From Candidatus Woesebacteria bacterium (lineage in GTDB: Bacteria > Patescibacteriota > Microgenomatia > UBA8517), in NCBI GenBank assembly GCA_013374855.1, contig CP055308.1, forward strand, positions 532,071 through 596,070: a stretch of 64,000 nt of DNA, given 5' to 3'. The notes beneath the pieces were generated by a model that saw nothing but the letters and a program-made list of their open reading frames with translations, did not search any database and was not told the origin of the DNA. The translations under genes were made by a program, and so were the position numbers. Within the stretch, counting starts at the first letter, position 1. Each line of letters starts with the position of its first letter. Below are positions 29,653 to 59,311 of this stretch, in pieces.

Positions 29653-29670
29653 GGGAGCCTCCTTTAAAGG
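29646..29670. repeat. REP-like 25-bp imperfect palindrome, copy 1 (cctttaagggagcctcctttaaagg), in inverted orientation relative to copies 2, 3 and 5
   Basis: Stem arms CCTTTAAGGGAG / CTCCTTTAAAGG. It sits in the 11-nt gap between the GT2 stop (29652) and the transposase 3' end, which lies on the other strand. Confidence 0.7.
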
Positions 29671-35729: not shown

Positions 35730-36098
35730 ATGCCCCAAAGTGCCAAGCAAGATTATATAACTAAAGAATTTTTCAAAAAAACTATAGAGGAGATGACCGA
35801 TACAATAATTCGTGGGATGGATGGTATTCACTCGGATTTGGTTGCCAGGATTGATAACTTAGAAAAAAGAGTTTCCAGACTAGAGGATAAACTTTATCAG
35901 GTAGAGATTAGATTATCTAATTTAGAAAATGAGTTATCCGAACTTAAAATTAAAGTGGCTAGTTTAGATGTCAGGCTGGCTGATATAGAGAAGAGGATTA
36001 AAGCTTTGGATAGAAAGTTGGATTTGCAGAGGAAACGGTTAAAAGAACAGGTAACTCGCATTGATAGATTAGAGGCACTTCAATCTCATCCGGCTTAA
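35730..36098 (+). CDS. Hypothetical coiled-coil protein
   Basis: Heptad-rich LEKRVSRLEDKLYQVEIRLSNLENELSELKIKVASLDVRLADIEKRIKALDRKLDLQRKRLKEQ. I set the start at the internal ATG (MPQSAKQ). The ORF as given starts at 35664. Confidence 0.4.
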   Translation: MPQSAKQDYITKEFFKKTIEEMTDTIIRGMDGIHSDLVARIDNLEKRVSRLEDKLYQVEIRLSNLENELSELKIKVASLDVRLADIEKRIKALDRKLDLQRKRLKEQVTRIDRLEALQSHPA

Positions 36099-36132
36099 AA
36101 CCCAACGCTTTAGAGAAGAATCACTGGAGGTT

Positions 36133-36158
36133 AGAGCAAGAGAGTTGAAGAGTAGAAG
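36133..36158. repeat. 26-bp direct repeat, right copy (agagcaagagagttgaagagtagaag)
   Basis: Matches the copy at 35638..35663. Confidence 0.6.
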
Positions 36159-36359
36159 GGGGAAGAAAGTATTGTGTATTTTGTGTTATGTATATAGATT
36201 CAGTAATAAAATTCCAAATTCCAAATCACAAATCACAATTCATTATCCACTATTCACAAATTCCGTCTTGTTAATTGTTAATAGTTAATTGTTATCTAAA
36301 TTTATTTTTAGCATCTATGTCCTGAAACGAGTTAGACTGACAAGGATGGACATTGTCAG

Positions 36360-36647
36360 TTATTTGAAGCTAACGACTAATTTTGATCCGAGAGCTTTTG
36401 CAATTTTGTTGATCTGATTAATAGAGGGATTTGCGTTCATTGTTTCAATATTTGAGATGATGGCTTGAGAAGTTTTTGCTTTTTTTGCTAGTTCTCTTTG
36501 TGACATTTTTTTCGCTAATCTTTTTTGGATGATAGCTTTAGCCAATAGGTATTTTGGTTCTTCTTTTTCCCAAGCCTTTCTAAAACCTTCGTCTTTGATG
36601 GCTTCGTTGAAATATTGATCAAATGTGTAAATTTTATTTCTTGCCAT
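36360..36647 (-). CDS. XRE-family helix-turn-helix transcriptional regulator (HigA/antitoxin-like), apparently orphan
   Basis: MSQRELAKKAKTSQAIISNIETMNANPSINQINKIAKALG is a canonical HTH_XRE. It is 95 aa. Confidence 0.7.
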   Translation of the reverse strand: MARNKIYTFDQYFNEAIKDEGFRKAWEKEEPKYLLAKAIIQKRLAKKMSQRELAKKAKTSQAIISNIETMNANPSINQINKIAKALGSKLVVSFK

Positions 36648-36684
36648 ACTGGTTTTTCAAATCTCTAAATTGATACTTTATATA

Positions 36685-36722
36685 GTATAATAATAAACGG
36701 TTTGACTTTTTTGTCAAGCCGT
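36685..36722 (-). promoter_or_regulatory. Putative sigma70-type promoter (-35 TTGACA, then N17-19, then ATTATT/TATTAT) overlapped by the palindrome ACGGTTTGAC-T6-GTCAAGCCGT, a candidate operator for the XRE regulator
   Basis: On the minus strand the sequence reads acggcTTGACAaaaaagtcaaaccgtttATTATTATactata. This lies about 40-75 nt upstream of the ATG at 36647. The palindrome has 10-bp arms with 1 mismatch. Confidence 0.35.
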
Positions 36723-36787
36723 ATCTTTTTCCCACATCTTGAGGCGACTTAAGGCAATTTTTATTTCTTTGTGGGGTTTTGTTTTTA

Positions 36788-36812
36788 CCTTTAAGGGAGC
36801 CTCCTTTAAAGG
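36788..36812. repeat. REP-like palindrome, copy 4 (cctttaagggagcctcctttaaagg). It has the same orientation as copy 1 and is intergenic, upstream of the GT2 gene at 36849
   Basis: Identical 25-mer to copy 1. Confidence 0.7.
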
Positions 36813-36848
36813 TAGTGGTTTTGCGACTGATTAGTTTATAATAGCTTT

Positions 36849-37619
36849 ATGAAATCTTTTCCTAAGATCTCGATAGTTATTCCGTCTTTTAACAAGGTTG
36901 AGTTTGTGGAGGAAACTCTAAGGTCTATTGTTGTTCAAAGATACCCCAACCTTGAGGTTATAATCCAAGATGGTGGTTCTACTGACGGAACTTTGGAGAT
37001 ATTAAAAAGGTATGCTAAAAAATACCCTAAAATTTTTAAGCTGGAAAGTAAAAAAGATAAAGGCCAATTGGATGCGATAAACAAAGGTCTTTCAAAGGCA
37101 AGTGGGGAAATAGTTTCTTTTATAAATGCAGATGATGTTTATGAAAAAGGTGCATTGAAAAAAGTAGCAGAAGCGTATCTTAAAAATCCTGATAGGCTTT
37201 GGTTTGCTGGAAAAGGAAGGGTAATAGATAAAAAAGGAAAAGAAATTGCCAAAATTGCCACTTGGTATAAGAGCTTTCTTTTATCTTTAAATAAAAAATA
37301 TTTAATTCTTGTTCTTAATTATTTGATGCAACCTTCTGTTTTTTTGACAAAGAAGGCTTACCAAAAGTATGGGCCATTTACCGGCACAAAGACTGCGGTT
37401 ATGGAGTATGACCTTTGGTTAAAACTTTTCCAAGTGCAAAAGCCTGTTGTTATACCTTTTTTTCTTTCTTCCTTTCGCCTTTATCCGGGCTCTATCTCGA
37501 CTTCTAAAATAAAGGAAATGATGAAAGAAGATGAAAAAATTGTTAAAAAATACACAAGAAATCCTTTAATAATTTTATTTCACAGAATTCACAATTTAGC
37601 AAGGTCTATTTGGGCTTGA
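36849..37619 (+). CDS. GT2 glycosyltransferase
   Basis: ISIVIPSFNKVEFVEETLRSIVVQRYPNLEVIIQDGGSTDGT...INADDV. Confidence 0.7.
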   Translation: MKSFPKISIVIPSFNKVEFVEETLRSIVVQRYPNLEVIIQDGGSTDGTLEILKRYAKKYPKIFKLESKKDKGQLDAINKGLSKASGEIVSFINADDVYEKGALKKVAEAYLKNPDRLWFAGKGRVIDKKGKEIAKIATWYKSFLLSLNKKYLILVLNYLMQPSVFLTKKAYQKYGPFTGTKTAVMEYDLWLKLFQVQKPVVIPFFLSSFRLYPGSISTSKIKEMMKEDEKIVKKYTRNPLIILFHRIHNLARSIWA

Positions 37620-38725
37620 TATTCAGATTATTTTTATTAAAATTGTGTTCAAACTTTTCTATGAGAAAAAACAAGTTGTTTAAAAATATTTTGGAGGTTA
37701 ATAATTTTATTTTCCCCTTTTTGATTCCACTTACTTATTTTTTTCTTTTTCTTGAAACATATTCTTATATTGGAGCTTTGAGGAAGTATATACTAGTTGA
37801 CTCAAGGTTTTTTTTAGCGCTATCTGTAGTTAGTGCTTTTGGTGTTTTGATCAAAAAAATATTGTTTGATGAGGGGAAAATGGAAGAAAATAATATGACC
37901 TCATTTGCTTTGAGATTCAATTTTATTCTTACTCCAATTTTTTTTGCTTTTTATTTTATTTTAATAGGTCTTGAAAATAGAAATTACCCAAATTATGTTT
38001 TCTCCTCTTATCATTTACAACCTGACAACTTTTTTAATTTAGTTTTGCTTGGATTGGTTTTGTCATTTGTTGGAATTTTTTATTTTTATAATGAAAACGG
38101 CAAAGGAAAGGTAGATAGATTAATTCGATTTTTATTGATAGAGTTTGGTGATTTTTCTTTTGAGAAGACACAAAAGAGTTCTGTCTTTAGGGATTTTTTG
38201 TCTAGATCTTTGTTTTTGGTTTCTTTGTTTTTGCTTGTTGTCTATTTTTTTAACAATCTGTCGAAGAGTCTTTCTTTATCTTTCAAGAACACACTCTACA
38301 TTTTTACACATCTGGACGCGACTTATGATGATAAAATGAGAAAAGTATGGGGGTTTTATTATGATTATATGAAGTTTGTAAAAGAAAACACACCAGAAAA
38401 TGCAACAATAGTTATTCCTCCACAGCAGGCCCCTTGGCTTTCCGAGGGTAATGTAGCATTAAGTAGATATTTTCTTTATCCTAGGAAGTTGCTAAATGGT
38501 TATTATGATTCTTTACCAAAAGAGCATTTTGATTATGTTTTATTGGCTTACGGAACTTGGCGAGCCAATAAAGACGAGGATTATGGTTGGCCTAAAGTTG
38601 AGTTGGAAGCTTCTGAAATAATTTATTTGGATCCAAAGAATAATGAGGTAGGAAAAATTAAAGATGTTGTTTACAGGCCTAATTTTAATGATAAAGTTTT
38701 GTGGGGAGTTATAAAAGTTAAATAA
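37610..38725 (+). CDS. Hypothetical membrane protein with a C-terminal soluble domain
   Basis: Several TM helices lie in the N-terminal two-thirds, followed by a hydrophilic C-terminus (YDDKMRKVWGFYYDYMKF...). The start is TTG, with an alternative ATG at 37661. Confidence 0.35.
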   Translation: MGLIFRLFLLKLCSNFSMRKNKLFKNILEVNNFIFPFLIPLTYFFLFLETYSYIGALRKYILVDSRFFLALSVVSAFGVLIKKILFDEGKMEENNMTSFALRFNFILTPIFFAFYFILIGLENRNYPNYVFSSYHLQPDNFFNLVLLGLVLSFVGIFYFYNENGKGKVDRLIRFLLIEFGDFSFEKTQKSSVFRDFLSRSLFLVSLFLLVVYFFNNLSKSLSLSFKNTLYIFTHLDATYDDKMRKVWGFYYDYMKFVKENTPENATIVIPPQQAPWLSEGNVALSRYFLYPRKLLNGYYDSLPKEHFDYVLLAYGTWRANKDEDYGWPKVELEASEIIYLDPKNNEVGKIKDVVYRPNFNDKVLWGVIKVK

Positions 38726-38735
38726 ATTAGAAAAT

Positions 38736-40085
38736 ATGTTTCTTTTAAAATTATTGCTATTTTTGTTTCTTTTATTTTTTTTAGGTTTTTTGATAACTTT
38801 TCTTTTTAAAATAAAATTTCATCTAATAGAAAGGATTTCTCTTTCCTATCTTCTAGGTATTGGCATTTTGACCTTTTTGATATTTATTATGAATTATTTT
38901 TTGGGTTTGGGTTTTAGTTCAAAAAATACATTTGTTGTTTTGTTATTATTGATTTTTGTTTTACTGGTTTTGGAGCGAAATAATTTTATTCTTTTCTTCA
39001 GAAATATAAGAAGATCGAATATAAGCATTTATTTTTTTAAAGATAAATATTCTTTAGTTTTTGCTTTCTCTATTTTTATTCTTTTGTTTTTTAGTCTGGT
39101 AAGAAATATTTATTGGCCTGTTTCTGATTGGGATGCTCTTGCTTTGTATGATTTTAGAGCTAAAGTCTTTCTATCTGAACCTAGTCTTTTAAAAGCTGGT
39201 TTGAATAACAGTTATTTTGTTCATTATCCACTTCTTACTTCTTTGGCACATCTTTTTGTGTATCAGACTGGCTTGAGTAATCCTAAATTTATTTATAGTC
39301 TTTTTTATTTGTCTTTTATTTTTATTTTTTATTTTTCTCTTCAAAGAAATGTTGGAAGTAATAAAGCAGTTTTTTTCTCATTAATTTTGGCACTAGTGCC
39401 TGAAATTTTTGGACATTCAACGATGGCGTATACAAATTTGCCTTATACTGTTTATTTGTGTTCTGGTGTTTTTTATCTTTATGAGTGGATAAAAAACAAA
39501 CAAAGATCTCTATTGGTTCTTTCTGGTTTGTTGGTTGGTCTTTCAAGCTGGGTTAGAATTTCAGAACCATTTTGGATGGTTCCTGTTTTGATAGTTATCT
39601 TTTTTTCAATCAAAAGAAAAGATTTTTTTAGTACATTTATTTATTTTTTTTCTGTTTATGTTTTCTACAAGGCGTGGTTATCTTTTATGGCAAAAGTAAA
39701 TTTTTTGAATTATGTTGAAGGCGGAGCAAGTTTGTCACTTATTGAAAGGTATTTGCCAATTTTGAAGACGATTAGTTTGGAGAGGATTATTTTGGTTGCT
39801 CAATACCTGTACAAAAATGTTTTTTCTAGTTGGGGATTGTTGTTTCCTATTTTTGTTTTGACTTCTTTATTTTTGTTCTTGAATTTGAGAAGAAGAAAAA
39901 AAGAAATAGAAGTTTTTTATTTTTGGTCTATAATATTTCTGTTTTTTATCTTTCTGTTTTTTGGCACTCTTCTTTTTTCTTACACTTTTCCCAATTGGCA
40001 ACATATTCCTGATTCGGCAAGAAGAATGAGTATGTTTTTTATCCCATTGATAATTTATTATTTTTCATTTGCAAATAATTTATAG
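38736..40085 (+). CDS. Polytopic membrane protein (uncharacterized; GT-C or polymerase-like topology)
   Basis: It has about 12 TM helices and no recognizable soluble domain. Confidence 0.35.
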   Translation: MFLLKLLLFLFLLFFLGFLITFLFKIKFHLIERISLSYLLGIGILTFLIFIMNYFLGLGFSSKNTFVVLLLLIFVLLVLERNNFILFFRNIRRSNISIYFFKDKYSLVFAFSIFILLFFSLVRNIYWPVSDWDALALYDFRAKVFLSEPSLLKAGLNNSYFVHYPLLTSLAHLFVYQTGLSNPKFIYSLFYLSFIFIFYFSLQRNVGSNKAVFFSLILALVPEIFGHSTMAYTNLPYTVYLCSGVFYLYEWIKNKQRSLLVLSGLLVGLSSWVRISEPFWMVPVLIVIFFSIKRKDFFSTFIYFFSVYVFYKAWLSFMAKVNFLNYVEGGASLSLIERYLPILKTISLERIILVAQYLYKNVFSSWGLLFPIFVLTSLFLFLNLRRRKKEIEVFYFWSIIFLFFIFLFFGTLLFSYTFPNWQHIPDSARRMSMFFIPLIIYYFSFANNL

Positions 40086-40257
40086 TGTAGCTTATTAATC
40101 AACTTAGAGCTAGCTGGTTTTATTTTCAATTACCAACTTGATAAAATATGGCTCGATACTTTTTTATTTTTTCACAGTGTATGCACAATATTTTTTGGTC
40201 TTATGTTATTTTAATGTTGTTAGATTTTGCAGTTTGAACAATCTATTCTTATATAAG

Positions 40258-41355
40258 ATGAAAATACTTTATGATTATCAGATTTTTAGTTTTCAAGAGT
40301 ATGGGGGTATCTCTAGGTATTTTTATGAATTGATCAAAGGAATGGAGAAATTAGGCAACGAAGTTTTTATTGATGGAAGGTTTTCTAATAATATTTTTTT
40401 GCCCAAATTAAAAGGTGGGGTTAAAAAATTTTTGCCTGATTATAAATTGCCATATAAAAATATTTTGTTATTTTATCTTAATAGATTTTTGGACGGTGAG
40501 AGATTGAAGAAAGGGAATTTTGATATTTTTCATCCTACTTATTATCATCCTTATTTTCTTCCGTTGCTAAAAGGCAGACCTTATGTGGTTACTGTTTTTG
40601 ATATGACTCATGAATTGTTTCCTGATAAATGTGGTGGTTTTATAAAGAAAACCTTAGAGTATAAGAGAAAGGTTGTTTTGGGAGCTAATAAGATTATTGC
40701 AATATCTGAAAGTACAAAAAATGATTTAATTAGATTATATGGTTTATCTAAAAGTAAGATAGAAGTCATATATTTGGGTAATCCATTGGAAGGAGTAAGA
40801 CCTTTAAAGGTTCCATCTCTGCCAGCGAATTACATTCTTTATGTTGGTAATCGCTCCGGTTATAAAAACTTTTTGTTTTTTGTGGAATCTATATCGACCA
40901 TTCTTATTAGAGAGAAAGATCTTTTTCTTGTGTGTGCCGGGGGTGGTGATTTTTCTAGCCAAGAGAGTAAATTGTTTTCTAAGTTGGGAATTCTTGGGAA
41001 AGTAAAACAAGTAAGTTTTAAAAGTGACAGAGAATTGGCTTATATTTACAAAAAAGCCAAAGTTTATGTACTTCCTTCACTATACGAAGGTTTTGGTCTA
41101 ACTGTTTTAGAGGCTTTTTCTATGGGCTGTCCTGTTATTGCAAGTAACAGAAGTTCTATACCTGAAGTTTGTGGAAAGGCTGCTGTCTATGTAAATCCAG
41201 AGGATAGAGAATCTATAAAAATAGCTGTTGAAAAAGTTTTGTCGGATGAAGATGTTAGAAATCATATAGTTTACTTAGGTTTTTTAACATTAAAGAGATT
41301 TTCTTGGGCCAAAACTGTTACAGAAACGTTGAATGTTTATAAATCTCTATGTTAG
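40258..41355 (+). CDS. GT4 glycosyltransferase
   Basis: VYVLPSLYEGFGLTVLEAFSMGCPVIASNRSSIPEV. I set the start at the internal ATG (MKILYDYQIF). The ORF as given begins at 40138. Confidence 0.7.
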   Translation: MKILYDYQIFSFQEYGGISRYFYELIKGMEKLGNEVFIDGRFSNNIFLPKLKGGVKKFLPDYKLPYKNILLFYLNRFLDGERLKKGNFDIFHPTYYHPYFLPLLKGRPYVVTVFDMTHELFPDKCGGFIKKTLEYKRKVVLGANKIIAISESTKNDLIRLYGLSKSKIEVIYLGNPLEGVRPLKVPSLPANYILYVGNRSGYKNFLFFVESISTILIREKDLFLVCAGGGDFSSQESKLFSKLGILGKVKQVSFKSDRELAYIYKKAKVYVLPSLYEGFGLTVLEAFSMGCPVIASNRSSIPEVCGKAAVYVNPEDRESIKIAVEKVLSDEDVRNHIVYLGFLTLKRFSWAKTVTETLNVYKSLC

Positions 41356-41370
41356 TCTTGATTTGAAATA

Positions 41371-42501
41371 ATGAGAAATGTTCTTTTTTTAACAAATGAT
41401 ATAAATTTGCAAAAAGGAGGTCAGGAGTTGGCAAATAAGTATTTAGTTGGTGTTTTGAGTAAAAAGTTTAATTTGAGTATTATAAATCTTAAGTTTTATC
41501 CAATCGCCACACACTATGGTAAGGTTAGATTGGATTTTGAAGTTGATTTTGTAAATTTGGGTTTTTTAAGTGGTTTTAAGCAATTGATATCTTTATTAAG
41601 AGAAGTTCTAAAAAAAAATAGTTTTGATTTGGTTGTGATATCTGCTAATCCATTTTCTACACTTCTTTTATTTTTTATTTTAAAGTCTCATTTCTTGTTT
41701 AAAAAACTTAAGGTGGTCCATTGGTGTCATATAGATCCTTTGTCTTCTATATTTCGGGCGTCTAGAATTCCGTTTATACTTTATCCTTTGGGTCTATTTT
41801 TGTATAGGAAATTTGATTTAATAGTTATTACGAACCCTTTTATGGGGAAAGTTTTTAATAATTATTATTTTGTTCCGAAAAGAAAGATGAAACTAATAAC
41901 TTATCCACTAAGACCTGATTTTGATAAAAAGATTAAGGAAAAGATAAAATTTAATTTTTCAAGGCCTGTGGTTGTTACTGCAACTAGGCTTACACAGACA
42001 CAAAAAGATCCAGCTACTTTAATTAAGGCTTTTAAGATTGTTAATAAAAAATTTCCGAGCGCTTCTTTATTGCTTTTGGGTGATGGTCCAGATAAGGAAA
42101 AATTAAGAATGTTAGCTAAGGAGTTAGGTATCTATAATAGTGTCCATTTTCTGGGTTTTGTTGATAACCCGCTTGGGTATTTTAGACGATCTGATGTTTT
42201 TGTTTTGTCTAGTAGAAGTGAAGGTACCCCAATTGTACTTGTTGAAGCTCAAGCTTGCGGTGTGCCAATAGTGGCTACTGATTGTCCAGTGGGTCCAAGG
42301 TGGGTTTTGGATTCGGGGAAAGCTGGTATTCTAACTAAAGTTGGTTCTTCTGATGAATTGGCAAATGCTATAATAAATCTGTTAAGCAAAAAAGAACCAG
42401 CTAGTAAAATGGTGAATAGGGGATTGTTATTATCAAAAAGGTTTGCTTTTAGGAAATTTGAGCTAGATTGGGTTAGGACTTTAAATAAATTAATAAGTTA
42501 A
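41371..42501 (+). CDS. GT4 glycosyltransferase
   Basis: VFVLSSRSEGTPIVLVEAQACGVPIVATDCPVGPR. Confidence 0.7.
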   Translation: MRNVLFLTNDINLQKGGQELANKYLVGVLSKKFNLSIINLKFYPIATHYGKVRLDFEVDFVNLGFLSGFKQLISLLREVLKKNSFDLVVISANPFSTLLLFFILKSHFLFKKLKVVHWCHIDPLSSIFRASRIPFILYPLGLFLYRKFDLIVITNPFMGKVFNNYYFVPKRKMKLITYPLRPDFDKKIKEKIKFNFSRPVVVTATRLTQTQKDPATLIKAFKIVNKKFPSASLLLLGDGPDKEKLRMLAKELGIYNSVHFLGFVDNPLGYFRRSDVFVLSSRSEGTPIVLVEAQACGVPIVATDCPVGPRWVLDSGKAGILTKVGSSDELANAIINLLSKKEPASKMVNRGLLLSKRFAFRKFELDWVRTLNKLIS

Positions 42502-42502
42502 T

Positions 42503-43642
42503 ATGAAATATTTTAATTCTAAAGAGGTTTTACTAGATGTAATTTCTGATTGCCAAAAAAACTTTTTAAATAATTTCAATACCAGTTTTGTTTATTTTTC
42601 TAAGTCGATTAGGGCAGACAATTTTTTATATGTACTTTTTCGTACCTTTACGAACCAAAGAATTAGAGATCGAGTTTTTAGGTTGATTGGTTTTTTCAAA
42701 AATTTGAAAAGCAAGGAGTATGATTTTAAGTATGTGGATAATAATGAGTATGAATATTTAAAGTGTTATTCTTTAGATTATCTAAATTATGTTTTTAAGT
42801 ACAATCCGCTTCTTAATTTATCTTATTTTTCTTTAAGGGATAAGAAAGAAATTCTTAGTTTTATTAAGAAATATTTTTATTTTGTTTTTCTGGGAAAAAT
42901 TCCAAAATCTCTTTTTACTGATGAGGAGTTGTTTTTTGAGAAAAAAAGAATAGAAGAGCAAGACAAGATTAGAATTGTTTCTGGTCATTTTGAATATCGT
43001 GGTTTTAAGACTTGTTTTCCAGCGATTATTAACCTTGTAGATTTTAGTTGCTATAAAGTTTCTAATAGAAGAATTAAGATCGCTTTAGATTTGGGTGGTT
43101 TTATCGGAGATACTGCTTATGCTATTTATAGAACCCTAAGTCCCGATAAGATTTTTGTTTTTGAACCAAACCCTGAGAATATGTCTATTTTGAGACAAAA
43201 TATTAAACTAAATTCGCTAGATAAATTTGTTGTACCGGTAGAGATGGCTGTAGGTCTAAAAGAGGGTAGATTTTCTTTTAAAATGGCGGGTGGTGCTTCT
43301 GGGTTGTTGGGTAGTAATGTTCTAAGCAGTAATGATTCTGTTATTAATGTAAAAGTTACATCTATAGATAACTTTGTTAAGAAGAATAAAATAAACAAAG
43401 TTGATTTTATAAAGATGGATATTGAGGGAGCAGAATTTGACGCGCTAAAGGGTGCTGTTAATACCTTAAGAAGAGATAAACCTGATTTGTTGATTGCTAT
43501 TTATCACAAAGGAGAGCATTTTTTTGAAATCCCCGGTTGGCTTAAGAAGCAAGTTCCTGAGTACAATCTTAGATTTGTGGCGATGAATGGTGCCTCTCCT
43601 ATAATGGAAAGGTATATTGCCGCTTCTGTCAGAAAAATATAA
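42503..43642 (+). CDS. FkbM-family SAM-dependent methyltransferase with an N-terminal extension of about 190 aa of unknown function
   Basis: ALDLGGFIGDTAYAIYRTLSPDKIFVFEPNPENMSILRQNIKLNSL...VPVEMAVG is the Methyltransf_21/FkbM signature. Confidence 0.6.
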   Translation: MKYFNSKEVLLDVISDCQKNFLNNFNTSFVYFSKSIRADNFLYVLFRTFTNQRIRDRVFRLIGFFKNLKSKEYDFKYVDNNEYEYLKCYSLDYLNYVFKYNPLLNLSYFSLRDKKEILSFIKKYFYFVFLGKIPKSLFTDEELFFEKKRIEEQDKIRIVSGHFEYRGFKTCFPAIINLVDFSCYKVSNRRIKIALDLGGFIGDTAYAIYRTLSPDKIFVFEPNPENMSILRQNIKLNSLDKFVVPVEMAVGLKEGRFSFKMAGGASGLLGSNVLSSNDSVINVKVTSIDNFVKKNKINKVDFIKMDIEGAEFDALKGAVNTLRRDKPDLLIAIYHKGEHFFEIPGWLKKQVPEYNLRFVAMNGASPIMERYIAASVRKI

Positions 43643-43873
43643 TCTAGTTTGTTTGGCTCGATCTCTTAAACTGCCATTTTTTGACAGTATGTTGAAATGT
43701 ACCTGGATTGCTTATTCTATAAATGGGGGAGGTGTTTAAAATTTTTTTTATATCTTATCTTCTGTAGTATAATTTTCTCTAATGTATCTTTCATTTTCTG
43801 ATGCTAATAAGTTTGCTCTTGACGGCGTATAAAGTTTTGGTGGGGTAATGGTTCATTTGACAAAATATGATTT

Positions 43874-44530
43874 TTGTTTCACAATTACTACCAAATGTGG
43901 GGTATTTCTGAAATAAAAAATAAGGATTTAATAGAAAACAAGCCTTATATTACTCGCAGTGAGCTTGCTATTTTGCTTGATAAAAGCAGCAAAAACCTTG
44001 ATAAAAAAATTTTAAGTCTTATCAAAAGCCGGTATTTACTCCCTCTCAAGAAAGGTCTTTATACAACCACAATCTATAAAATTAAATCCCCGCCGGGTTT
44101 TGAGGAATACCTTGCTAATATTATTTACTATCCTTCATATCTTTCATTGGAGTATGTTTTGTCAAAAGAAGGTGTGATACCCGAGTCTGTTTATGTATAT
44201 ACTTCTATAACTTCAAAGACAACTCGTTTTTTTGAAAATGAGGTGGGCAAGTTTAGTTACAGGAAAATTAGCGGCAAATTGTTTGATGGGTTTACTCTTA
44301 AAGATTTTGAGAGCGGACTGAAGATAAAAATAGCTTCAAAATCAAAAGCGCTTTTTGATTTTTTCTATTTGAAGCCTTTCAAAAATATAGAGTTAGAGAT
44401 TGACGATCTGAGGATAAACTGGAATGTGTTTGATTTATCTGATCTTAATGAGTTTTATTTTTGGGTTGATGTTTCCCAATCTCCAAAGATGGAAAAAATA
44501 AAGAAAATAGTTAGAGATAAAATTTTATGA
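43874..44530 (+). CDS. AbiEi-like protein: putative type IV antitoxin / transcriptional regulator partner of the downstream AbiEii
   Basis: The N-terminus has ITRSELAILLDKSSKNL...LKKGLYT, which is winged-HTH-like. It is about 218 aa and has a 4-nt overlap with the downstream nucleotidyltransferase gene. Confidence 0.45.
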   Translation: MFHNYYQMWGISEIKNKDLIENKPYITRSELAILLDKSSKNLDKKILSLIKSRYLLPLKKGLYTTTIYKIKSPPGFEEYLANIIYYPSYLSLEYVLSKEGVIPESVYVYTSITSKTTRFFENEVGKFSYRKISGKLFDGFTLKDFESGLKIKIASKSKALFDFFYLKPFKNIELEIDDLRINWNVFDLSDLNEFYFWVDVSQSPKMEKIKKIVRDKIL

Positions 44531-45369
44531 TACTTGATAACCTAAAATTAACAGTAGATAGAAATAAAGATAAGAATAAACTTTATTTGAGAAACCTTCT
44601 GAAAGAGGAGCTGCAGTATTATGTTTTGAACTATGTCTATAATTCTGTTTATGGACCAAAGTTTTTATTTAAGGGTGGAACTGCTCTTCGTTTTTGTCTT
44701 GATTTGCCTAGAGTTTCTGAAGATTTGGATTTTGATGTTTTTGATTATGAGAATTTTAACCATTCTGACTTTGCTGGTGATTTAAAGGATTATTTTTCTA
44801 AAAGACTGGGGTTTGACGACTTGAATATTAGTATTTCGGGGAAAAATAAGATAATTTATCTTAAGTTTTTTGTGCTAGATAAGATTGGTTTTCCTTTAGA
44901 GAAAGGCAAACCTTCGGATAAAAATCTTTTCTTGAGGATAGACTTGGCTCCTGTTATGGGAGAGTTTTATAAACAGGAAGTTTCACTTAAGTCTGCTTAT
45001 GATTTTTCCTTCATTATTAAAAGATACTCTTTTGAGGACATTTTGTCCGGAAAAATTTTTGCCGTGTTAAGTAGGTGGAGATTTCAGGGTAAAAATATAG
45101 AACCGCGATTCAAGGGCAGAGATTATTTTGATATATTCTGGCTTTCAGGGAAGGGTATAAAACCGAATCTTAAGTATCTTTACAGTCTTGTGGGTTTCAA
45201 GAATAAGAAGCTCCTCAAAAGTAAAATTCAAGAAAAGATTAATCAGGCATTAAAAAAGAAAGAAATGATAAGAGATGATTTAATACCCTTTTTCCAAGAG
45301 AGGAAATTTGTTGACGATTTTATTGAAAATTTTGAATCTTTTGGAAGATATTTTCTTGAAAATCTTTGA
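44527..45369 (+). CDS. AbiEii/AbiGii-family nucleotidyltransferase toxin (DUF1814)
   Basis: LFKGGTALRFCLDLPRVSEDLDFDV is the hallmark GGTAL...R.S.DLDF motif. Confidence 0.65.
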   Translation: MILDNLKLTVDRNKDKNKLYLRNLLKEELQYYVLNYVYNSVYGPKFLFKGGTALRFCLDLPRVSEDLDFDVFDYENFNHSDFAGDLKDYFSKRLGFDDLNISISGKNKIIYLKFFVLDKIGFPLEKGKPSDKNLFLRIDLAPVMGEFYKQEVSLKSAYDFSFIIKRYSFEDILSGKIFAVLSRWRFQGKNIEPRFKGRDYFDIFWLSGKGIKPNLKYLYSLVGFKNKKLLKSKIQEKINQALKKKEMIRDDLIPFFQERKFVDDFIENFESFGRYFLENL

Positions 45370-45380
45370 TTTTATAGATT

Positions 45381-46940
45381 ATGTTTTCGCTTTTTCTTTC
45401 TTTTTCTGATGCTGCTAAATTTGCTGATGTTGCAAGGAATTTTGTGGAAGGAAAAGGTTGGGGTTCTTCTTTTTCTTTTTTTTCTCCTTCTATTTTTGAC
45501 CAGCTCTCAAGGCCAGTTTTTGATATGGGAATTTTTCCGCTTCAGCCGTTTTTTATTTCCTTGTTTTTTCGTGTTTTCGGAATAAGTGACTTTGCTGTTG
45601 TTGCCACTTCATTTTTCTTTTATTTGCTTTCTTTAATTTTTGTATTTTTATTGGCAAATAAAGTTTTTGAAAATAAAATTATTGCTTTTCTTTCTTTTTT
45701 GGCAGTTGCTTTTAACATAAATCTTATTGATTATGCAACAAGTGGGGCATCAGAACCCTTGTTTATTGCGGAGGTTGTCTTGGCTTTTTATTTGGTTTCT
45801 TTTAAGAAAAGAATTGCGGATATTTTTGCAATTTTTGTGCTTATTTTGGCTTATTTTACAAGAGCTCATGCTTTTATTTATATAGCAGGGGCAATTCTTT
45901 TTTGGCTTTCCTTGAGATTTAACCTGAAAAAAACTGTTTTTTATTTTGGTGCGGTTTTATTTTTGGGGGTTTTATTTGATCGACTGGTTTTATACCCATT
46001 GTCAGGCAAGTTTTTTATTTATTCAGTGTTGGGAAGCGGACAGTTTGCTGTTTTGCAACACAGCCCGGATTGGGCGGTGTCGGATACTTTGAGGGGGCTT
46101 CCACGGCAGTCTTTTGATTTTTTGGCTTTGTTTAAAAAAGTTTTCTATAACCTTTACAATTTCTATAAGTTAATGCCAAATATTCTAAACCCATATCTTT
46201 TTGCTCTTTTTGTTATTTCTTTTTTTGTTCCTTCAAAATCAAAAACAATTGGTGCTTTTAAGACTGCATCTTTTTTTGTCTTTATTTTTGTTTTTTTAGT
46301 GGCGGCGCTGACTATTCCTTTTTACCGCTATCTTCACCCTGTGGTTCCTTTTGTTTATGTATTGGGGGTAGCAACTTTAGTTGGGTTCTTGAATGCAGAT
46401 TATAAAATGGGAAAGAAGATAGGTTCTTTTTCAATTCGCGGTTTTCTTGCTGTATTTTTGATTTTTATATTTGCAGTTGGGCAGAGTGTTGGTGTTTTAG
46501 TGTTGGACAGGCGGTTTGAAAGAAAAATTTATAATTTTGGAAAACCTCCGGTTTACGTGGAGCTTGCTCATGTTTTGAAAGAAAACACAGATGAAAACCA
46601 AGTAGTAGTTACCAATCTTGATACTTGGGGAAGCTGGTATGGAAAGCGTAAGACTGTTTGGTTTCCTCTTGAACCAAAACAATTGATTAACCCTAAAAAT
46701 GGGGAAATTCCTTTTGATGCGATTTATCTGACAAACTACAAAATGGACGACCCGAATTATTATATGGGAAAAGAATGGCGGATGATTTTTGAAAATCCTC
46801 AAAATCCAGAAAAATGGGAGTGTGATGGGTGTTTTGAGATTGCAAAGAATTATACTCTCAAGGTAATTTACAAAATTAGCCCCGGTGATGTTTATGAAAA
46901 AGAGGAGGGGGTAGGAGTACTTTTTGTTAAAAAGAATTGA
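45381..46940 (+). CDS. ArnT-like GT-C membrane glycosyltransferase (GT83-like) with a C-terminal soluble domain
   Basis: DAAKFADVARNFVEGKGWG resembles the ArnT D(E)..YAEIAREM..G.W motif. It has about 11 TM segments. Confidence 0.55.
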   Translation: MFSLFLSFSDAAKFADVARNFVEGKGWGSSFSFFSPSIFDQLSRPVFDMGIFPLQPFFISLFFRVFGISDFAVVATSFFFYLLSLIFVFLLANKVFENKIIAFLSFLAVAFNINLIDYATSGASEPLFIAEVVLAFYLVSFKKRIADIFAIFVLILAYFTRAHAFIYIAGAILFWLSLRFNLKKTVFYFGAVLFLGVLFDRLVLYPLSGKFFIYSVLGSGQFAVLQHSPDWAVSDTLRGLPRQSFDFLALFKKVFYNLYNFYKLMPNILNPYLFALFVISFFVPSKSKTIGAFKTASFFVFIFVFLVAALTIPFYRYLHPVVPFVYVLGVATLVGFLNADYKMGKKIGSFSIRGFLAVFLIFIFAVGQSVGVLVLDRRFERKIYNFGKPPVYVELAHVLKENTDENQVVVTNLDTWGSWYGKRKTVWFPLEPKQLINPKNGEIPFDAIYLTNYKMDDPNYYMGKEWRMIFENPQNPEKWECDGCFEIAKNYTLKVIYKISPGDVYEKEEGVGVLFVKKN

Positions 46941-47507
46941 ATAGTTTTTTAGAAGCTGGCTGTTAAATGAATAATCATTTTTTGCTTTTTGTTAAAACCT
47001 TCTTTGCTGCTGAAATAAATGATTGTTTGGCGTGACCGACCTCATACAATAAGGTAAAAGTTGCGGGTATATAAAACATCTAATCTCGCATATGCCTTTT
47101 TCTTTTTTGTAGGAACAATATGTTTCTTCATTTTCATCTAGTTTTATTATTTTTATCTTGCTTATAATATTTTTGTTTTTGGGGTCTATTTTCTTCTAGA
47201 AAAAGTTTGTTATTTCTTATGCTTCTTCAATAAAGTTTTTGGTGATATTTTTGGGTATGCCGGTTTTTTGGCTTATTTGTTCTATGAAGTTTTTGTATCC
47301 TTTTTGTTTTGACTCTTGGTTTAGAAGCTTTGTAAGCTTGGTGAAGTGTCTTTCAGCTTCTTTCAATAATTTTATGTGTTTGCCAAAGCTTGTGACCTTT
47401 TCTTTGTAAGAAACCTTGGAGATTGGTATTTTTCTTATTTTAGGTGGGGTAATAATTTTTTAATCTTTTTGTATTCTTTTTTTCCACTTAATTATTTTTT
47501 AAAGAAG

Positions 47508-47933
47508 TCATTTTATTTTAGTTTGTAATTTAAAAACTTTTTTTCTAGTTTCCATTTTTGTTTGGGTCTTTGAGTAATCTAGCACTTCTTCTAGGAATTG
47601 CTTAAAAAATGGTGAATCTGGATGTCTTACATAAAAACCAAGTTCTGCTGCTGATTCGATGGCAGAGAAAAGTGTCTTTTCCTCTTCAATTAGTTTTCTC
47701 ACTTTTACCATAAAGTTAAAAAGCTTTTCTGAAATTGAAGAAAGTTCGTCAATTGAAATTTTTCCTTTTTCAAAATCTTTTATTGTCATAAGAAAAATTT
47801 TTTTTATCTGGTCTGTATTAATTTCTTTTTTTTCACTTTCAATTCCAGCTTTCTTTTTGTATTCCTCGAATTTTTTATAAGGGAAGGGGATTGTAATAAT
47901 TTTATTTATTTTCTTGGTTTTTAGACTTTTCAT
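47508..47933 (-). CDS. Hypothetical protein, paralog of 57259..57618
   Basis: Shared blocks are ISIDELSSISEKLFNF...GFYVRHPDSPFFKQFLEEVLDY in this copy and YSIDDLSAVCMKLFDI...SFYIRKPDLLPQFTKLLEEFFDI in the other. Confidence 0.45.
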   Translation of the reverse strand: MKSLKTKKINKIITIPFPYKKFEEYKKKAGIESEKKEINTDQIKKIFLMTIKDFEKGKISIDELSSISEKLFNFMVKVRKLIEEEKTLFSAIESAAELGFYVRHPDSPFFKQFLEEVLDYSKTQTKMETRKKVFKLQTKIK

Positions 47934-48115: not shown

Positions 48116-49417
48116 GTGAAGATTTTTAAGGTGCTTTTCTATTTGCCCACCTTTTCTATTGTTTTGGTTGGTTTTTATCTTATTGTTTCAACGTCGCTTT
48201 ATGTTCGTTATTGGGTTGATGATTTTTGTTCTGCTGCTTTTTTAAAAGATAATGGTTTTTGGGGCGCTCAACTTGGTTGGTGGAAAAGTTGGACAGGTAG
48301 GTATTCAGCTGTATTTTTTACTAGTCTATTTGAGCTTGTTGGTCCATGGGTAGTAAGGTTTTTGCCTATTTTTTTGTTTTTATTGTTGGTTTTTACATCT
48401 TATCTTATTCTTAAAAATTTTTTGATATCTGCTTTGTTTGTTATTTTAGTCTTTATTAATTCACCAAACATTATTCAATCTTTTTATTGGCAAACAGGAT
48501 TATTGAATTACACAGCAGAGTTTGTATTTCTTAATATTTTTCTAGTTTTTTTGCTTTTTAAGAAAAGAGCCAGCCTTATTTTTCCTTTTTTATTTACTTT
48601 TATTGCCGGCGGTTTTTCTGAGGCTTTTGCTCTTGGGTCAATTCCATTTTTTTTGTGTCTGGGAGTTGCCTTGCATTTTTTTTATAGAGAAAAAAGAGAT
48701 AAAAAATTAAAAGTTTGGATTGCAGGTCTATTGGGTATTTTGTTCTCGCTTTTTCTTATGAGCCTTTCTCCCGGTAATGCAACAAGATCTGAATTTGTTA
48801 CAAGACCTGAGAGTTTTTCCTTTGTCGCAAGGTCTACTTTTTTGGCGACTAGGTGGTACTTATTAAGAATGTTTTCTATTAACACTTTTGTTTATTCTTT
48901 GTTTGTTGCTTTTCTGACTATATTTTTATTTTTTAGAGAGGTTAAGTTGAATTTAAGAGATGGGTTTCTTTTTTCTTTTATTTTTTTTATAGGGGGGATT
49001 TTTTCTGTGATGCTTGTAATATTTTCTGGTTTTTATTCTATGTCGATATTACCACCTGAGAGAACTTTATTTTTAGCGGTGTGTTTGTTTTTTTATTGTT
49101 TTTTTATTGCTTCATTTTTTGTTGTAGGAGTTGTTAATAAATATCTGGTCAGTAAACTTAATAATATTGTTAATATAGCATTTATTTTAAATATGTTTTT
49201 TTCTGTAATTTTATTTTTTAATTTCTACCCTCATTGGATAAATGTTAGAAAAGAAGTTAAAGATTATGCAATTGCTTGGGATGTTGAGGTAAGAAATTTA
49301 CCTGAAGTAAAAAATGTAAAACCAGTTGGGGGTCTTGATAGCTTTACTGATAATAAAGGTTGGGTTTCTTCATGTATTGCAAGATATTATGGTTTTGAGG
49401 AAATTATTGTGAAGTAA
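48116..49417 (+). CDS. Polytopic membrane protein (uncharacterized)
   Basis: It has about 12 TM helices, a GTG start and a short soluble C-terminus. Confidence 0.4.
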   Translation: MKIFKVLFYLPTFSIVLVGFYLIVSTSLYVRYWVDDFCSAAFLKDNGFWGAQLGWWKSWTGRYSAVFFTSLFELVGPWVVRFLPIFLFLLLVFTSYLILKNFLISALFVILVFINSPNIIQSFYWQTGLLNYTAEFVFLNIFLVFLLFKKRASLIFPFLFTFIAGGFSEAFALGSIPFFLCLGVALHFFYREKRDKKLKVWIAGLLGILFSLFLMSLSPGNATRSEFVTRPESFSFVARSTFLATRWYLLRMFSINTFVYSLFVAFLTIFLFFREVKLNLRDGFLFSFIFFIGGIFSVMLVIFSGFYSMSILPPERTLFLAVCLFFYCFFIASFFVVGVVNKYLVSKLNNIVNIAFILNMFFSVILFFNFYPHWINVRKEVKDYAIAWDVEVRNLPEVKNVKPVGGLDSFTDNKGWVSSCIARYYGFEEIIVK

Positions 49418-49548
49418 TTTTTTTATCCTTTTTTAGATAGATTTTTTCTTATTTTTGCAAGATCTTATTTTGTCTTATGGATTTCTCCAATGGTTGCATT
49501 TTTTTTATAATTACTTGCCTTTTGTAATTTTTATTTGATTTAAGGTTT

Positions 49549-49800
49549 CTAGTAATCTTTTCTGTTGCTTTTGCGGTTGGATTCTCTCCAGAGTTGGACA
49601 GAGTAGCACTCGTTAACATTTGAGCATTTGCCTCCTTGGACTGGACACTCTTTTGATTTTCTGCCATTTACTCGTTGTCCGCAATCTCTTCTATAAATTT
49701 GATTCCAAGCCTCTGTTTCGGTGTCTGGTTCTACATTAATTCCTATTTCTTCCATTAATCTGCGCGCCGCTTCGTCAAGTGATGTTTTTCTTTCTCCCAT
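49549..49800 (-). CDS. Small hypothetical Cys-containing protein (83 aa)
   Basis: The ORF sits in a locally GC-richer segment. Cys residues fall at about 40/52/59/65. It is an alternative to the overlapping ORF 49449..49667. Confidence 0.25.
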   Translation of the reverse strand: MGERKTSLDEAARRLMEEIGINVEPDTETEAWNQIYRRDCGQRVNGRKSKECPVQGGKCSNVNECYSVQLWRESNRKSNRKDY

Positions 49801-49898
49801 ATTGGGTCATATTTTATAATTTTTGAGTTTAATAATCAAATTTTTGAATGAGAATTAAGAGTAGATAAATAATCTGTAATCTTTGCTAAAATAAGACA

Positions 49899-51176
49899 GT
49901 GAAAAAATATATAGATAAAGCAAAGACGCTTGCTTTTTCGTCTACTGCCAAAGACACCTACTTTCTTTTTGTGGGTAATATTGTCTCTGCCATTTTTCAT
50001 TTTTTGTTTATTTGGTTTATTGCCCGCGCGCTTTCTGTTCCTGAATTTGGAATTTTTTCTGCTGTTTCCAATTTGGTTTATATTATCTCTCCTTTGGTGG
50101 ATCTTGGAATATCGGGGGGATTAATTGAGTTTGCTTCTTATTTTAGATCAAGAGGAGAAGAAGAAAAAGCAAAAGAGTTTGTGAAAGCTGCCTTTATTGC
50201 TCGTTTTTTGTTTCTTCTTTTGGCTTGTGTAATCTTGGTAATGATTTCTCCTTTTTGGGGAGAAAAGCTTTTTGCTTCTTCTGATTTTTATCTTTCTTTA
50301 TGGACTGTGATTATTCTTCTTGGAATTTTCTGGAGTTATTTTTTTTCTTCAACGCTTCAGGCGTATCGAAGATTTATAGCTTCATCTGTTGTTGATAACG
50401 CTTATGCGGCAGGAAGGGTGATCTTTGTAATTTTTCTTTCTATTGGCGGGCTTACGCTTTATAAGGCTTTGGGTGCTTTTGCTTTAGCAGGTATCGTTGC
50501 TTTTTTTGCTGCCCTTTTTACTTTTGGCTTTTCTTTTCTGAAGACAAAACCTTCTTTTTCGGTCTATAAGAAACTTATTTCTTTTTCCGGCTGGCTTGGG
50601 GTAAACAGAGTTCTTTCTTCAGTTTCAGGAAGAGCTGATATTCAGATGCTTGCTGCTCTTGCTGGGGCAACTGTCACTGGGTATTATTCTGTTGCCTCGC
50701 GGCTTTCCTTTTTTATAGTGGTTTTGACTTCAAGCTTTGCTTCTGTAATTTCCCCACGGCTTGCTTCTATGGGAGACAGGGAAAAAGAAAAAGTTTTTAT
50801 TAGAAAATCTCTTTTGGCGGTATTGGGGGTTAGCCTTGGAATTATAGTTTGGGTTTTATTGGCGCGGCCTTTTATACTTTTTCTTTTTGGAGAAAAATAT
50901 AAAGACTCTATTGTTGTTTTCCAGTGGCTTGCTTTGTCTATGATTCCTTTTGTTTTTACTGCTCCTTCTGTTTCTGCTGTTGTTTATGCTTTAAAAAAAC
51001 CTAAGGTTATTGGAGTTTTTTCTTTTGTTCAGACCGCGCTTATTTTTATTCTAAATTACCTGCTTATTCCGAAAATTGGTCCATTTGGGCCTGTTGTAAC
51101 TTATGCTATAACAAATACTGCTCTTGCTTTGTGGACTTGGTGGATTGTCTTAAAATTTTATTGGGGAAAACACTAA
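49899..51176 (+). CDS. Wzx-like flippase / polysaccharide biosynthesis protein (MOP superfamily)
   Basis: It has about 12 TM helices. The N-terminus TAKDTYFLFVGNIVSAIFHFLFIWFIARALSVPEFGIFSAV is typical of Polysacc_synt. Confidence 0.6.
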   Translation: MKKYIDKAKTLAFSSTAKDTYFLFVGNIVSAIFHFLFIWFIARALSVPEFGIFSAVSNLVYIISPLVDLGISGGLIEFASYFRSRGEEEKAKEFVKAAFIARFLFLLLACVILVMISPFWGEKLFASSDFYLSLWTVIILLGIFWSYFFSSTLQAYRRFIASSVVDNAYAAGRVIFVIFLSIGGLTLYKALGAFALAGIVAFFAALFTFGFSFLKTKPSFSVYKKLISFSGWLGVNRVLSSVSGRADIQMLAALAGATVTGYYSVASRLSFFIVVLTSSFASVISPRLASMGDREKEKVFIRKSLLAVLGVSLGIIVWVLLARPFILFLFGEKYKDSIVVFQWLALSMIPFVFTAPSVSAVVYALKKPKVIGVFSFVQTALIFILNYLLIPKIGPFGPVVTYAITNTALALWTWWIVLKFYWGKH

Positions 51177-58445: not shown

Positions 58446-58739
58446 ATGTCTGTTTCTCTTTTAGCTTTCAAAAAACTCTTTTGGGATGTTGATTTTTCTA
58501 AAATTGATCCTGTTAAAAATAAGCGGTTTGTTATTGAAAGAGTGCTTGAATATGGCGACCTTTCCCATTTTAAAAAGCTAAAAGAGGTTTATTCTCTTGA
58601 TGACATAAAGGAAGTTCTTAAAAACTCAAGAACAATATCGTTTAAAACTGCCAACTTTTATGCTTTAATATTGCATGTTCCCAGAAAGGATATTTTATGT
58701 TTGAGAAAGCCATTGATACAAAAACAAGACAGGTTTTAA
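58446..58739 (+). CDS. Small hypothetical protein, putative partner (antitoxin) of the downstream nucleotidyltransferase
   Basis: It is 97 aa and overlaps the downstream gene by 43 nt. It has no recognizable motif. Confidence 0.3.
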   Translation: MSVSLLAFKKLFWDVDFSKIDPVKNKRFVIERVLEYGDLSHFKKLKEVYSLDDIKEVLKNSRTISFKTANFYALILHVPRKDILCLRKPLIQKQDRF

Positions 58740-59311
58740 GAAAAATAAAAGAAACTGGGGTGTTGGATAATTTTTATCTTGCCGGAGGTACTGCTCTTTC
58801 TTTAATTTTGGGACACAGAAAGTCTATTGACCTTGATTTCTTTTCTTCCAAATTTCCAAAGATTGAGATATTGCTTGCCAAGTTAAAGCCTCTTGTGCCT
58901 GAGATTATTAATCAAGATAAAGGGACGCTTGATTTGTATATAGATGGTGTGAAGGTGAGTTTTTTGAGATATGATTATCCTTTAATTGGAGATTTATTAG
59001 AGTTTGATGGGGTGAGGATTGCTTCGATTTTTGATATTGCTTGTATGAAGCTTTCTGCAATATCCTCTCGTGGATCAAAAAAGGATTTTGTTGACCTTTA
59101 TTTTATTCTTAAAGATAAAGGGTTTGGTAGACTTCTTTCTCTTTTTCAGAAAAAATTTAAAGGCGTTGACTATCAGATGACCCACATCTTAAAGTCTCTT
59201 GTTTATTTTAAGGATGCGGAACAAGACCCAGATCCTGTTTTTTTGGTTCCTTTTGACTGGAAGAAAGCAAAGGAAAGATTAAAAAAGGAAGTTCTTTCTT
59301 ATGTTTTATAG
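58697..59311 (+). CDS. Nucleotidyltransferase, AbiEii/AbiGii-like (DUF1814-type), short form
   Basis: FYLAGGTALSLILGHRKSIDLDFFS is a GGTAL...R.S.DLDF motif. Confidence 0.55.
   Translation: MFEKAIDTKTRQVLRKIKETGVLDNFYLAGGTALSLILGHRKSIDLDFFSSKFPKIEILLAKLKPLVPEIINQDKGTLDLYIDGVKVSFLRYDYPLIGDLLEFDGVRIASIFDIACMKLSAISSRGSKKDFVDLYFILKDKGFGRLLSLFQKKFKGVDYQMTHILKSLVYFKDAEQDPDPVFLVPFDWKKAKERLKKEVLSYVL

Follow-up and report, generated by a model that had tools for sequence, protein, structure and literature searches.

The AbiE toxin-antitoxin (TA) systems of Streptococcus agalactiae and Lactococcus lactis pair an antitoxin, AbiEi, with a toxin, AbiEii, and are among the described systems closest to a gene pair that we report here at positions 43874-45369 of a 64,000-nucleotide stretch of DNA (the window) from a Candidatus Woesebacteria bacterium. 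In S. agalactiae AbiEii, mutation of G49, R63, D67, D69, K173, R180 or D192 abolishes toxicity (PMC3985639), and S. agalactiae AbiEi represses abiE by binding cooperatively to two 23-bp inverted repeats that lie 3 bp apart over the promoter; comparable repeats are described for Rv2827c of Mycobacterium tuberculosis (PMC7319586). The phospho-acceptor is T65 in AbiEii and S78 in MenT3 (bioRxiv 10.64898/2026.01.19.700257), and a loop of AbiEi, D85-E86-I87, is needed for complex formation and for phosphorylation, as in a Type VII system; a Type VII rather than a Type IV classification has been proposed for AbiE. One hypothesis holds that most classical defence and TA systems are missing from genome-reduced bacteria, Patescibacteria among them (PMC12455944).

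The window pair is probably an autonomous AbiE-family TA cassette of about 1.5 kb, composed of a COG5340-type AbiEi and a DUF1814/COG2253-type AbiEii, that has recombined into a slot of a glycan island. It appears to be an under-annotated, divergent branch of the known AbiE family. To judge from the sequence, both genes are intact, the catalytic and toxicity-essential residues are conserved, and the cassette brings its own promoter.

The toxin gene

Two open reading frames (ORFs) are present on the + strand at 43874-45369. The upstream ORF corresponds to the putative antitoxin gene abiEi (43895-44530, +), which starts at an ATG and encodes 211 amino acids (aa), and the downstream ORF to the putative toxin gene abiEii (44527-45369, +), which encodes 280 aa. 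The two overlap by 4 nt (ATGA, 44527-44530), as had been noted in the preliminary description of this DNA, and the two genes are paired in every homologous locus that we looked at.

The downstream gene had been assigned from its motifs to the DUF1814 (AbiEii) nucleotidyltransferases (NTases), and its product matches the Pfam AbiEii family PF08843 at 76.7 bits, well above the cutoff of 22.5, and scores as high as 92.4 bits against the PADLOC models of AbiEii. Residues 48-70 contain FKGGTALRFCLDLPRVSEDLDFD, and the motif residues are GG at 50-51, R62-x-S64-x-D66-x-D68, K176/R183, and R198-D199-x-x-D202. In an alignment of 38 toxin homologs (46-85% identity), G50, G51, R62, S64, E65, D66, D70, R137, D139, K176, R183, K196-G-R-D199 and D202 are all invariant, and D68 is conserved at 90% or more. 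The catalytic aspartates expected of an NTase are thus present and invariant, but the literal GSX10DXD spacing anticipated for them is not found; the toxin has GG-x14-DLD instead, which is the DUF1814 form.

The residues essential for toxicity in S. agalactiae AbiEii, mapped by motif position rather than by direct alignment, all have counterparts in the window toxin: G49 corresponds to G50, R63 to R62, D67 and D69 to D66 and D68, K173 and R180 to K176 and R183, and D192 of the +DxxD motif to D199. Invariant residue S64 lies two residues ahead of the first catalytic aspartate (S64-E-D66-L-D68), which is where the phospho-acceptors T65 of AbiEii and S78 of MenT3 stand, and aligns with the serine of the MenT4 sequence RFSTDLDF. 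Structure entries for MenT3 mutants carry S78A and D82A, a serine-to-aspartate spacing of 4 that matches the window toxin. The toxin family profile reaches the DUF1814 structures 4OK0 and 4O8S (JHP933) and MenT4 (6Y56), and the AlphaFold model of the toxin, with a predicted local distance difference test (pLDDT) score of 94.6, has TglT/MenT3 and JHP933 as its top Foldseek matches, with probability 1.00.

The antitoxin gene

The upstream gene had been described as AbiEi-like because of a short segment resembling a winged helix-turn-helix (wHTH), and PADLOC profiles and the fold support this. Eight PADLOC AbiEi models match its product, the strongest (147.7 bits) along almost the entire protein. 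Searches of PDB sequences with the antitoxin gave nothing useful, and phmmer found no match to 6Y8Q, so that its identity needed a fold comparison; the predicted structure has the two-domain AbiEi/Rv2827c fold, with an N-terminal wHTH and a C-terminal antitoxicity domain. A candidate counterpart of the D85-E86-I87 loop lies at residues 92-101, which include the motif G-x-I-P-E with I95 and P96 nearly invariant and E97 invariant. Its position is similar to that of the AbiEi loop.

Start codon, promoter and candidate operator

The best promoter-like site in the region is of the sigma-70 type (43857-43885, +; 10/12 matches), with a -35 box TTGACA at 43857-43862, a 17-nt spacer, and a -10 box CACAAT at 43880-43885 that ends 9 nt ahead of the ATG at 43895. 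We compared upstream regions of homologous loci, initially seven and then 88. They have in common a block consisting of TTGACA, a 17-nt spacer, CA(C/T)AAT, 9 nt and the ATG. TTGAC stands exactly at -38 in 37 of 76 unique loci, and occurs in 70/76 upstream regions compared with 52/265 random segments. The preliminary description had taken the upstream gene from a TTG at 43874, but this codon falls within the conserved promoter spacer, and the gene therefore starts at ATG 43895, the start also chosen by the gene caller. Because only 9 nt separate the -10 box from the ATG, we infer that the abiE mRNA is leaderless or nearly so.

An imperfect palindrome at 43871-43919, with its left arm at 43871-43892 and its right arm at 43898-43919, is centred on the A of ATG 43895; 16/22 positions are complementary, the -10 box falls within the left arm, and the codons for antitoxin residues 2-9 make up the right arm. 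Across the homologous loci the arms are 14-22 nt long, with the -10 box embedded in the left arm. Inverted-repeat scans miss the window palindrome, since short seeds return chance repeats and a limit of one mismatch and a 20-nt gap is too strict; it is the comparison across loci that reveals it. With the A of the ATG as the centre, the 37 loci chosen solely by TTGAC at -38 show 70% complementarity over positions ±3 to ±24; at centres shifted by 0.5-2 nt the value is 28-46%. When right arms are swapped among loci the complementarity is 0.673 ± 0.008, compared with 0.698 observed, a value reached by 4 of 2000 permutations. In more distant clades the palindrome keeps its spacing to the -35 box but has another sequence, for example GTTCTGCTCCATTATTA / TAATACTGGAGCAGAAC, and it lies wholly upstream of the ATG. 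Of the 76 loci, 44 have a palindrome score above the 95th percentile for random genomic segments.

By analogy with the S. agalactiae repeats, the palindrome is expected to be the AbiEi operator, and we treat it as a candidate for that role. The alternative of an RNA hairpin is unlikely, given that the transcript would begin at the palindrome centre. The geometry, with the start codon at the palindrome centre, is unusual for an operator. Residues 2-9 of the antitoxin (...SEIKN), conserved in the window clade, have low model confidence, and distant antitoxin homologs do not have them, their matches beginning at residues 10-17; the conservation of the N-terminal SEIKN may thus reflect a constraint on the DNA rather than on the protein.

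A 22-codon ORF running from ATG 43848 to 43916 (+), preceded by GGTGGGG, overlaps the promoter and the abiEi start in another frame, and is probably due to chance. No Rfam family was found in 43500-45500, nor any convincing terminator in that interval, including the 11-nt gap between abiEii and the next gene.

A relic of a glycosyltransferase gene upstream of the pair

As had been described, the pair stands between a gene for an FkbM methyltransferase upstream (PF05050, 79.9 bits) and an ArnT-like gene for a PMT_2/GT-C glycosyltransferase downstream (45381-46940, +; PF13231, 29.5 bits), hereafter PMT_2, which begins 11 nt past the abiEii stop codon. The wider surroundings are a long run of genes encoding glycosyltransferases of families 2 and 4 (GT2, GT4), PMT_2, Wzx-like and DUF6056 proteins. 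A gene-free stretch of about 230 bp had been reported ahead of the pair, and 43643-43873 is indeed non-coding over 231 bp, but the accompanying statement that the operon is otherwise compact applies to 36849-43642 alone; further gaps of the wider cluster lie at 36098-36849, 46940-47508 and 49417-49899.

This stretch contains a relic of a PMT_2 gene. A direct repeat (87% identity) flanks the cassette, with copies at 43784-43817 and 45392-45425, at a distance of 1608 bp. Its right copy forms the start of the intact PMT_2 gene, and its left copy belongs to a 5'-end relic (43782-43817, +) that has its ATG at 43782, reads MYLSFSDANKFA (ATG plus 11 codons) and then meets a stop codon, with the translation MYLSFSDANKFALDGV*. 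The relic matches the PMT_2 start of L012, a contig of a close relative, at 34/36 nt, the first 24 nt exactly; the similarity collapses after nt 36, and a weaker similarity may run to about 43855. The intact PMT_2 gene of the window starts differently, with MFSLFLSFSDAAKFA and 9 extra nt. The 139 nt that separate the relic ATG from the FkbM stop codon (43643-43781) have no ORF and are presumably the original FkbM-PMT_2 intergenic region. The gap thus reads as a 139-nt old intergenic spacer, a decapitated PMT_2 start of the L012 type, and the cassette promoter.

The presence of a PMT_2 5' end in the gap points to an insertion or recombination scar. Most likely a segment carrying abiE together with a PMT_2 allele recombined in and replaced the resident PMT_2 start, with the left junction presumably some 36-70 nt into the resident PMT_2 and the right one in homologous sequence further downstream. 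We also considered a simple target-site duplication followed by divergence and find it less likely, since the copies seem to derive from two distinct PMT_2 alleles: the left one is L012-like at 34/36 nt, and the right one has the 9-nt longer start. If the scar is correctly read, the empty site would be FkbM, 139 nt, and ATGTATCTTTC...

Presence and absence in relatives

Searching genome contigs for PMT_2 yielded four syntenic genomes (L008-L011) that have orthologs at 45-47% identity and keep the cluster order g37610, PMT_2, ..., PMT_2, (DUF6056), Wzx, GT2, PMT_2, GT4, GT2. Their clusters contain no match to AbiEi, AbiEii or FkbM, even at E≤10, and just upstream of PMT_2 each of the four has another gene, for a membrane protein, a methyltransferase or an ABC-2 permease. 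The PMT_2 protein of L012 is 92% identical to that of the window, and the small gene downstream of it 98%; here a different AbiEii gene occupies 3-776 (+), abutting PMT_2 at 778, and its product is 25% identical to the window toxin and matches the Pfam model at 104 bits. The L012 contig ends inside this AbiEii gene, and the antitoxin and any scar fall outside it. The comparison suggests that cassettes have been exchanged at the FkbM-PMT_2 slot. Together with the PMT_2 relic and the absence of the pair from the four syntenic relatives, the other AbiEii in L012 upholds the earlier proposal that the pair was inserted horizontally.

Two further features of these clusters were noted. The small downstream gene of the window (47508-47933, -; 141 aa) lies between the PMT_2 and DUF6056 genes and has no family match; it is the gene that is 98% conserved in L012, and the same position holds other small accessory genes in L009 and L011. 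In L009, a SocA/Panacea antitoxin gene (PF13274, 70.8 bits) and a gene for a 129-aa partner lie at 11483-12405 (+), between the PMT_2 ortholog and the DUF6056 gene. The other AbiEii in L012 and the SocA/Panacea module in L009 together point to a variable slot that repeatedly receives TA modules.

Distribution and glycan context

Database searches returned 506 toxin and 805 antitoxin homologs. All named homologs are from Patescibacteria (Microgenomates, Gottesmanbacteria, Pacebacteria or Roizmanbacteria), and the same proteins occur at 100% or at least 90% identity in other assemblies. By this sampling the subfamily appears to belong to the Patescibacteria (candidate phyla radiation, CPR), mainly Microgenomates, and to have hundreds of members. 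The named antitoxin homologs are labelled 'hypothetical protein', showing that the system is under-annotated. Viral contigs of IMG/VR contain only distant relatives, at 26-32% identity, and none shows phage carriage of the subfamily.

A near-universal link to glycan genes, seen in the first long contigs (7/8 loci), was corrected by a census of 98 immediate neighbours at 60 independent loci. Glycan genes make up about 12 of the 98 (about 12%), with GT2 accounting for seven, GT1/GT4 for three, and DegT and an epimerase for one each. Other neighbours encode AAA_14 proteins (5/98, four of them also DUF4143), further AbiEii (4/98), Fic (2/98), PIN (2/98) and RhuM (1/98). With glycan genes scored by family hidden Markov models (HMMs) built from annotated seeds, and the closest clade defined by AbiEi at least 50% identical, a glycan gene lies within three genes of the pair in 8/11 closest-clade loci and in 8/34 loci of more distant homologs (Fisher p=0.0085), a contrast within the family. 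The preliminary description had found a defence gene in a surface-glycan locus notable; this stands for the closest clade, but not for the family as a whole, where many neighbours are TA or mobile genes.

Further TA-like and mobile genes were seen in the window and around homologs elsewhere. A second TA-like pair in the window (58446-59311, +), between a GT2 gene and a GtrII/PMT_2-like gene, consists of two overlapping genes, one for a DUF6922 protein (97 aa; PF21956, 73.7 bits) and the other for a short AbiEii NTase (204 aa; PF08843, 64.9 bits). This NTase shares 43% identity with the AbiEii that accompanies a DUF6922 protein next to the homolog in contig L002. Genes for AAA_14/DUF4143 ATPases recur by AbiE homologs, for example at 2235-3383 in L002 and 14426-14843 in L014. 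Directly downstream of the AbiE homologs in L004 (8981-11473) and L005 (8208-10895) are genes for PhdYeFM-PIN, NTP_transf_2 (MNT-like), DUF7387-HicA and PIN, a TA gene run inside a sugar-nucleotide/glycosyltransferase cluster. In the window, a gene for an IS200-like Y1 transposase (29664-30362, -; PF01797, 38.6 bits) lies about 13.5 kb upstream of the pair, and an Xre-type HTH_3 gene (36360-36647, -; 95 aa) stands by itself within the 750-bp gap at 36098-36849, on the opposite strand and at the apparent upstream edge of the compact glycosyltransferase gene run. The neighbour census and the TA cargo in the window, L002 and L004 favour the view that glycan clusters are variable islands that accumulate TA modules over that of a dedicated functional link.

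Discussion

By analogy with the described systems, AbiEii would add pyrimidine nucleotides to tRNA 3' ends and so block translation, and AbiEi would bind AbiEii and induce its auto-phosphorylation on Ser64, turning the toxin off as in a Type VII rather than a Type IV system. Two AbiEi molecules would bind the palindrome and repress the leaderless abiEi-abiEii transcript. This transcript probably reads on into PMT_2: abiEii and PMT_2 are only 11 nt apart with no terminator between them, and their co-transcription is probable, driven by the abiE promoter and/or by transcription coming through from upstream. The abiE-PMT_2 segment presumably replaced the resident PMT_2 start by recombination, at a slot that would be part of a glycan island collecting other TA modules as well. 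The biological role could be stabilisation of the island or segment, abortive infection, or both.

Several observations weigh against an active cassette of the AbiE family acquired in this way. The antitoxin has no Pfam match at E≤0.1, missing every Pfam AbiEi model, and scores 32.8 bits against the NCBIfam equivalog TAA_AbiEi, whose cutoff is 150. The HMM check proposed for AbiEi is therefore positive for the PADLOC models and negative for Pfam and NCBIfam, a pattern that suggests that the antitoxin is a divergent branch unrecognised by the current models of the latter two. GC content and skew give the pair no foreign signature, and no recombinase or target-site duplication of normal length was found that would explain movement of the cassette. 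The inner right half-site of the window palindrome is degraded and reads GTGGGG instead of the GTAGTA of relatives. Toxicity, antitoxicity, phosphorylation, DNA binding and the transcription start are all assigned by homology. Finally, S. agalactiae AbiE gave no protection against 32 coliphages, so that a role in defence cannot be assumed.

This last point bears on the alternative that survives best, which we nonetheless consider unlikely: that the pair is a dedicated abortive-infection defence placed in a glycan locus for its function, for example to guard or sense a phage-receptor glycan. AbiE of L. lactis aborts phages of the 936 type, and RlegTA and SanaTA affect T7. The enrichment in the closest clade fits such a placement, as does the position of abiEii 0-48 nt from a downstream gene on the same strand in the window and L002, where that gene is a glycan gene, and in L006, where it is unannotated and followed by GT2 genes. 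However, the enrichment contrasts one clade with another rather than with a genomic frequency of glycan genes, and over the whole family such genes are a small minority of immediate neighbours, which are often TA or accessory genes (PIN, HicA, Fic, AAA_14/DUF4143, further AbiEii). The syntenic glycan clusters also work without the pair, and the S. agalactiae result also weighs against it. An AbiE cassette that entered a variable island accounts for the locus better.

A broader idea is that AbiE cassettes in Microgenomates are coupled physically and transcriptionally to glycosyltransferase alleles and act as addiction modules that drive and fix the exchange of surface-glycan gene segments among strains. 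It draws on the 11-nt gap, the lack of a terminator within it and the allele-replacement scar, and we regard it as a speculative and rather improbable extension. If true, the leaderless promoter that AbiEi represses would also control the downstream glycosyltransferase, and glycan variation would be tied to the state of the TA system.

It is very improbable that the pair is not a TA system at all but a regulator and an NTase of glycan biosynthesis, in which the wHTH protein would control the operon and the NTase would activate a sugar or modify a glycan. The pair is co-directional with the glycan genes, close to PMT_2 and not separated from it by a terminator, and a glycan context recurs in the closest clade. 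Yet all AbiEii toxicity-essential residues and the phospho-acceptor serine are invariant or nearly so, the folds match tRNA-modifying toxins and their antitoxins rather than sugar nucleotidyltransferases, most family members are not beside glycan genes, orthologous clusters do without the pair, and a candidate operator lies on the pair's own promoter. An inactive, decaying TA remnant is just as hard to credit: chromosomal TA modules often decay and the window operator is degraded in one half-site, but neither ORF is truncated, no motif residue has been lost, the same proteins recur nearly unchanged in other assemblies, and the promoter hexamers are near consensus.

The locus provides an example at the sequence level of the entry of a cassette into a surface-glycan island: it has kept a scar, relatives have no cassette at the site, and L012 has another one there. 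It also offers a well-defined candidate operator with the start codon at its centre. Knowledge of how AbiE works is unchanged, and we regard the finding as solid but incremental.

Comparison with known systems

The window pair shares with AbiE of S. agalactiae and L. lactis an operon of two genes that overlap by 4 nt, with the antitoxin gene leading, a DUF1814 NTase toxin with motifs I-IV at nearly the same residue numbers, an antitoxin made up of a wHTH and a C-terminal domain, and a pair of inverted repeats of about 20 bp over the promoter. It differs in that the antitoxin is far diverged (structure-based identity 9-14%), the phospho-acceptor is a serine in the window toxin but a threonine in S. 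agalactiae AbiEii, and the pair is chromosomal, in a patescibacterium, and inside a glycan cluster. The layout of the promoter also differs, since the S. agalactiae transcription start site lies 26 nt upstream of the ATG, whereas the window ATG is at the palindrome centre, 9 nt past the -10 box.

Among the M. tuberculosis systems, MenAT3 (TglT-TakA, Rv1045-Rv1044) and Rv2827c-Rv2826c are only 10-14% identical to the window pair, and Rv2827c is larger, at 295 aa, with four repeats and negative cooperativity. JHP933 of Helicobacter pylori (PDB 4O8S/4OK0) shares the KGxTAL...RFSEDLDFD and +DxxD motifs with the window toxin, matches it structurally with probability 1.00, and provides the only PDB sequences that the toxin family profile reaches at E of about 1e-5; it differs in its location in a plasticity zone and in being shorter (232-260 aa in the PDB chains). 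The pairs of DUF6922 and short AbiEii proteins, such as those at 58446-59311 in the window and beside the L002 homolog, place a DUF1814 NTase module in the same glycan islands. Their toxins of 204-213 aa have no significant pairwise similarity to the 280-aa toxin, however, and their partner is a DUF6922 protein of 96-97 aa rather than an AbiEi.

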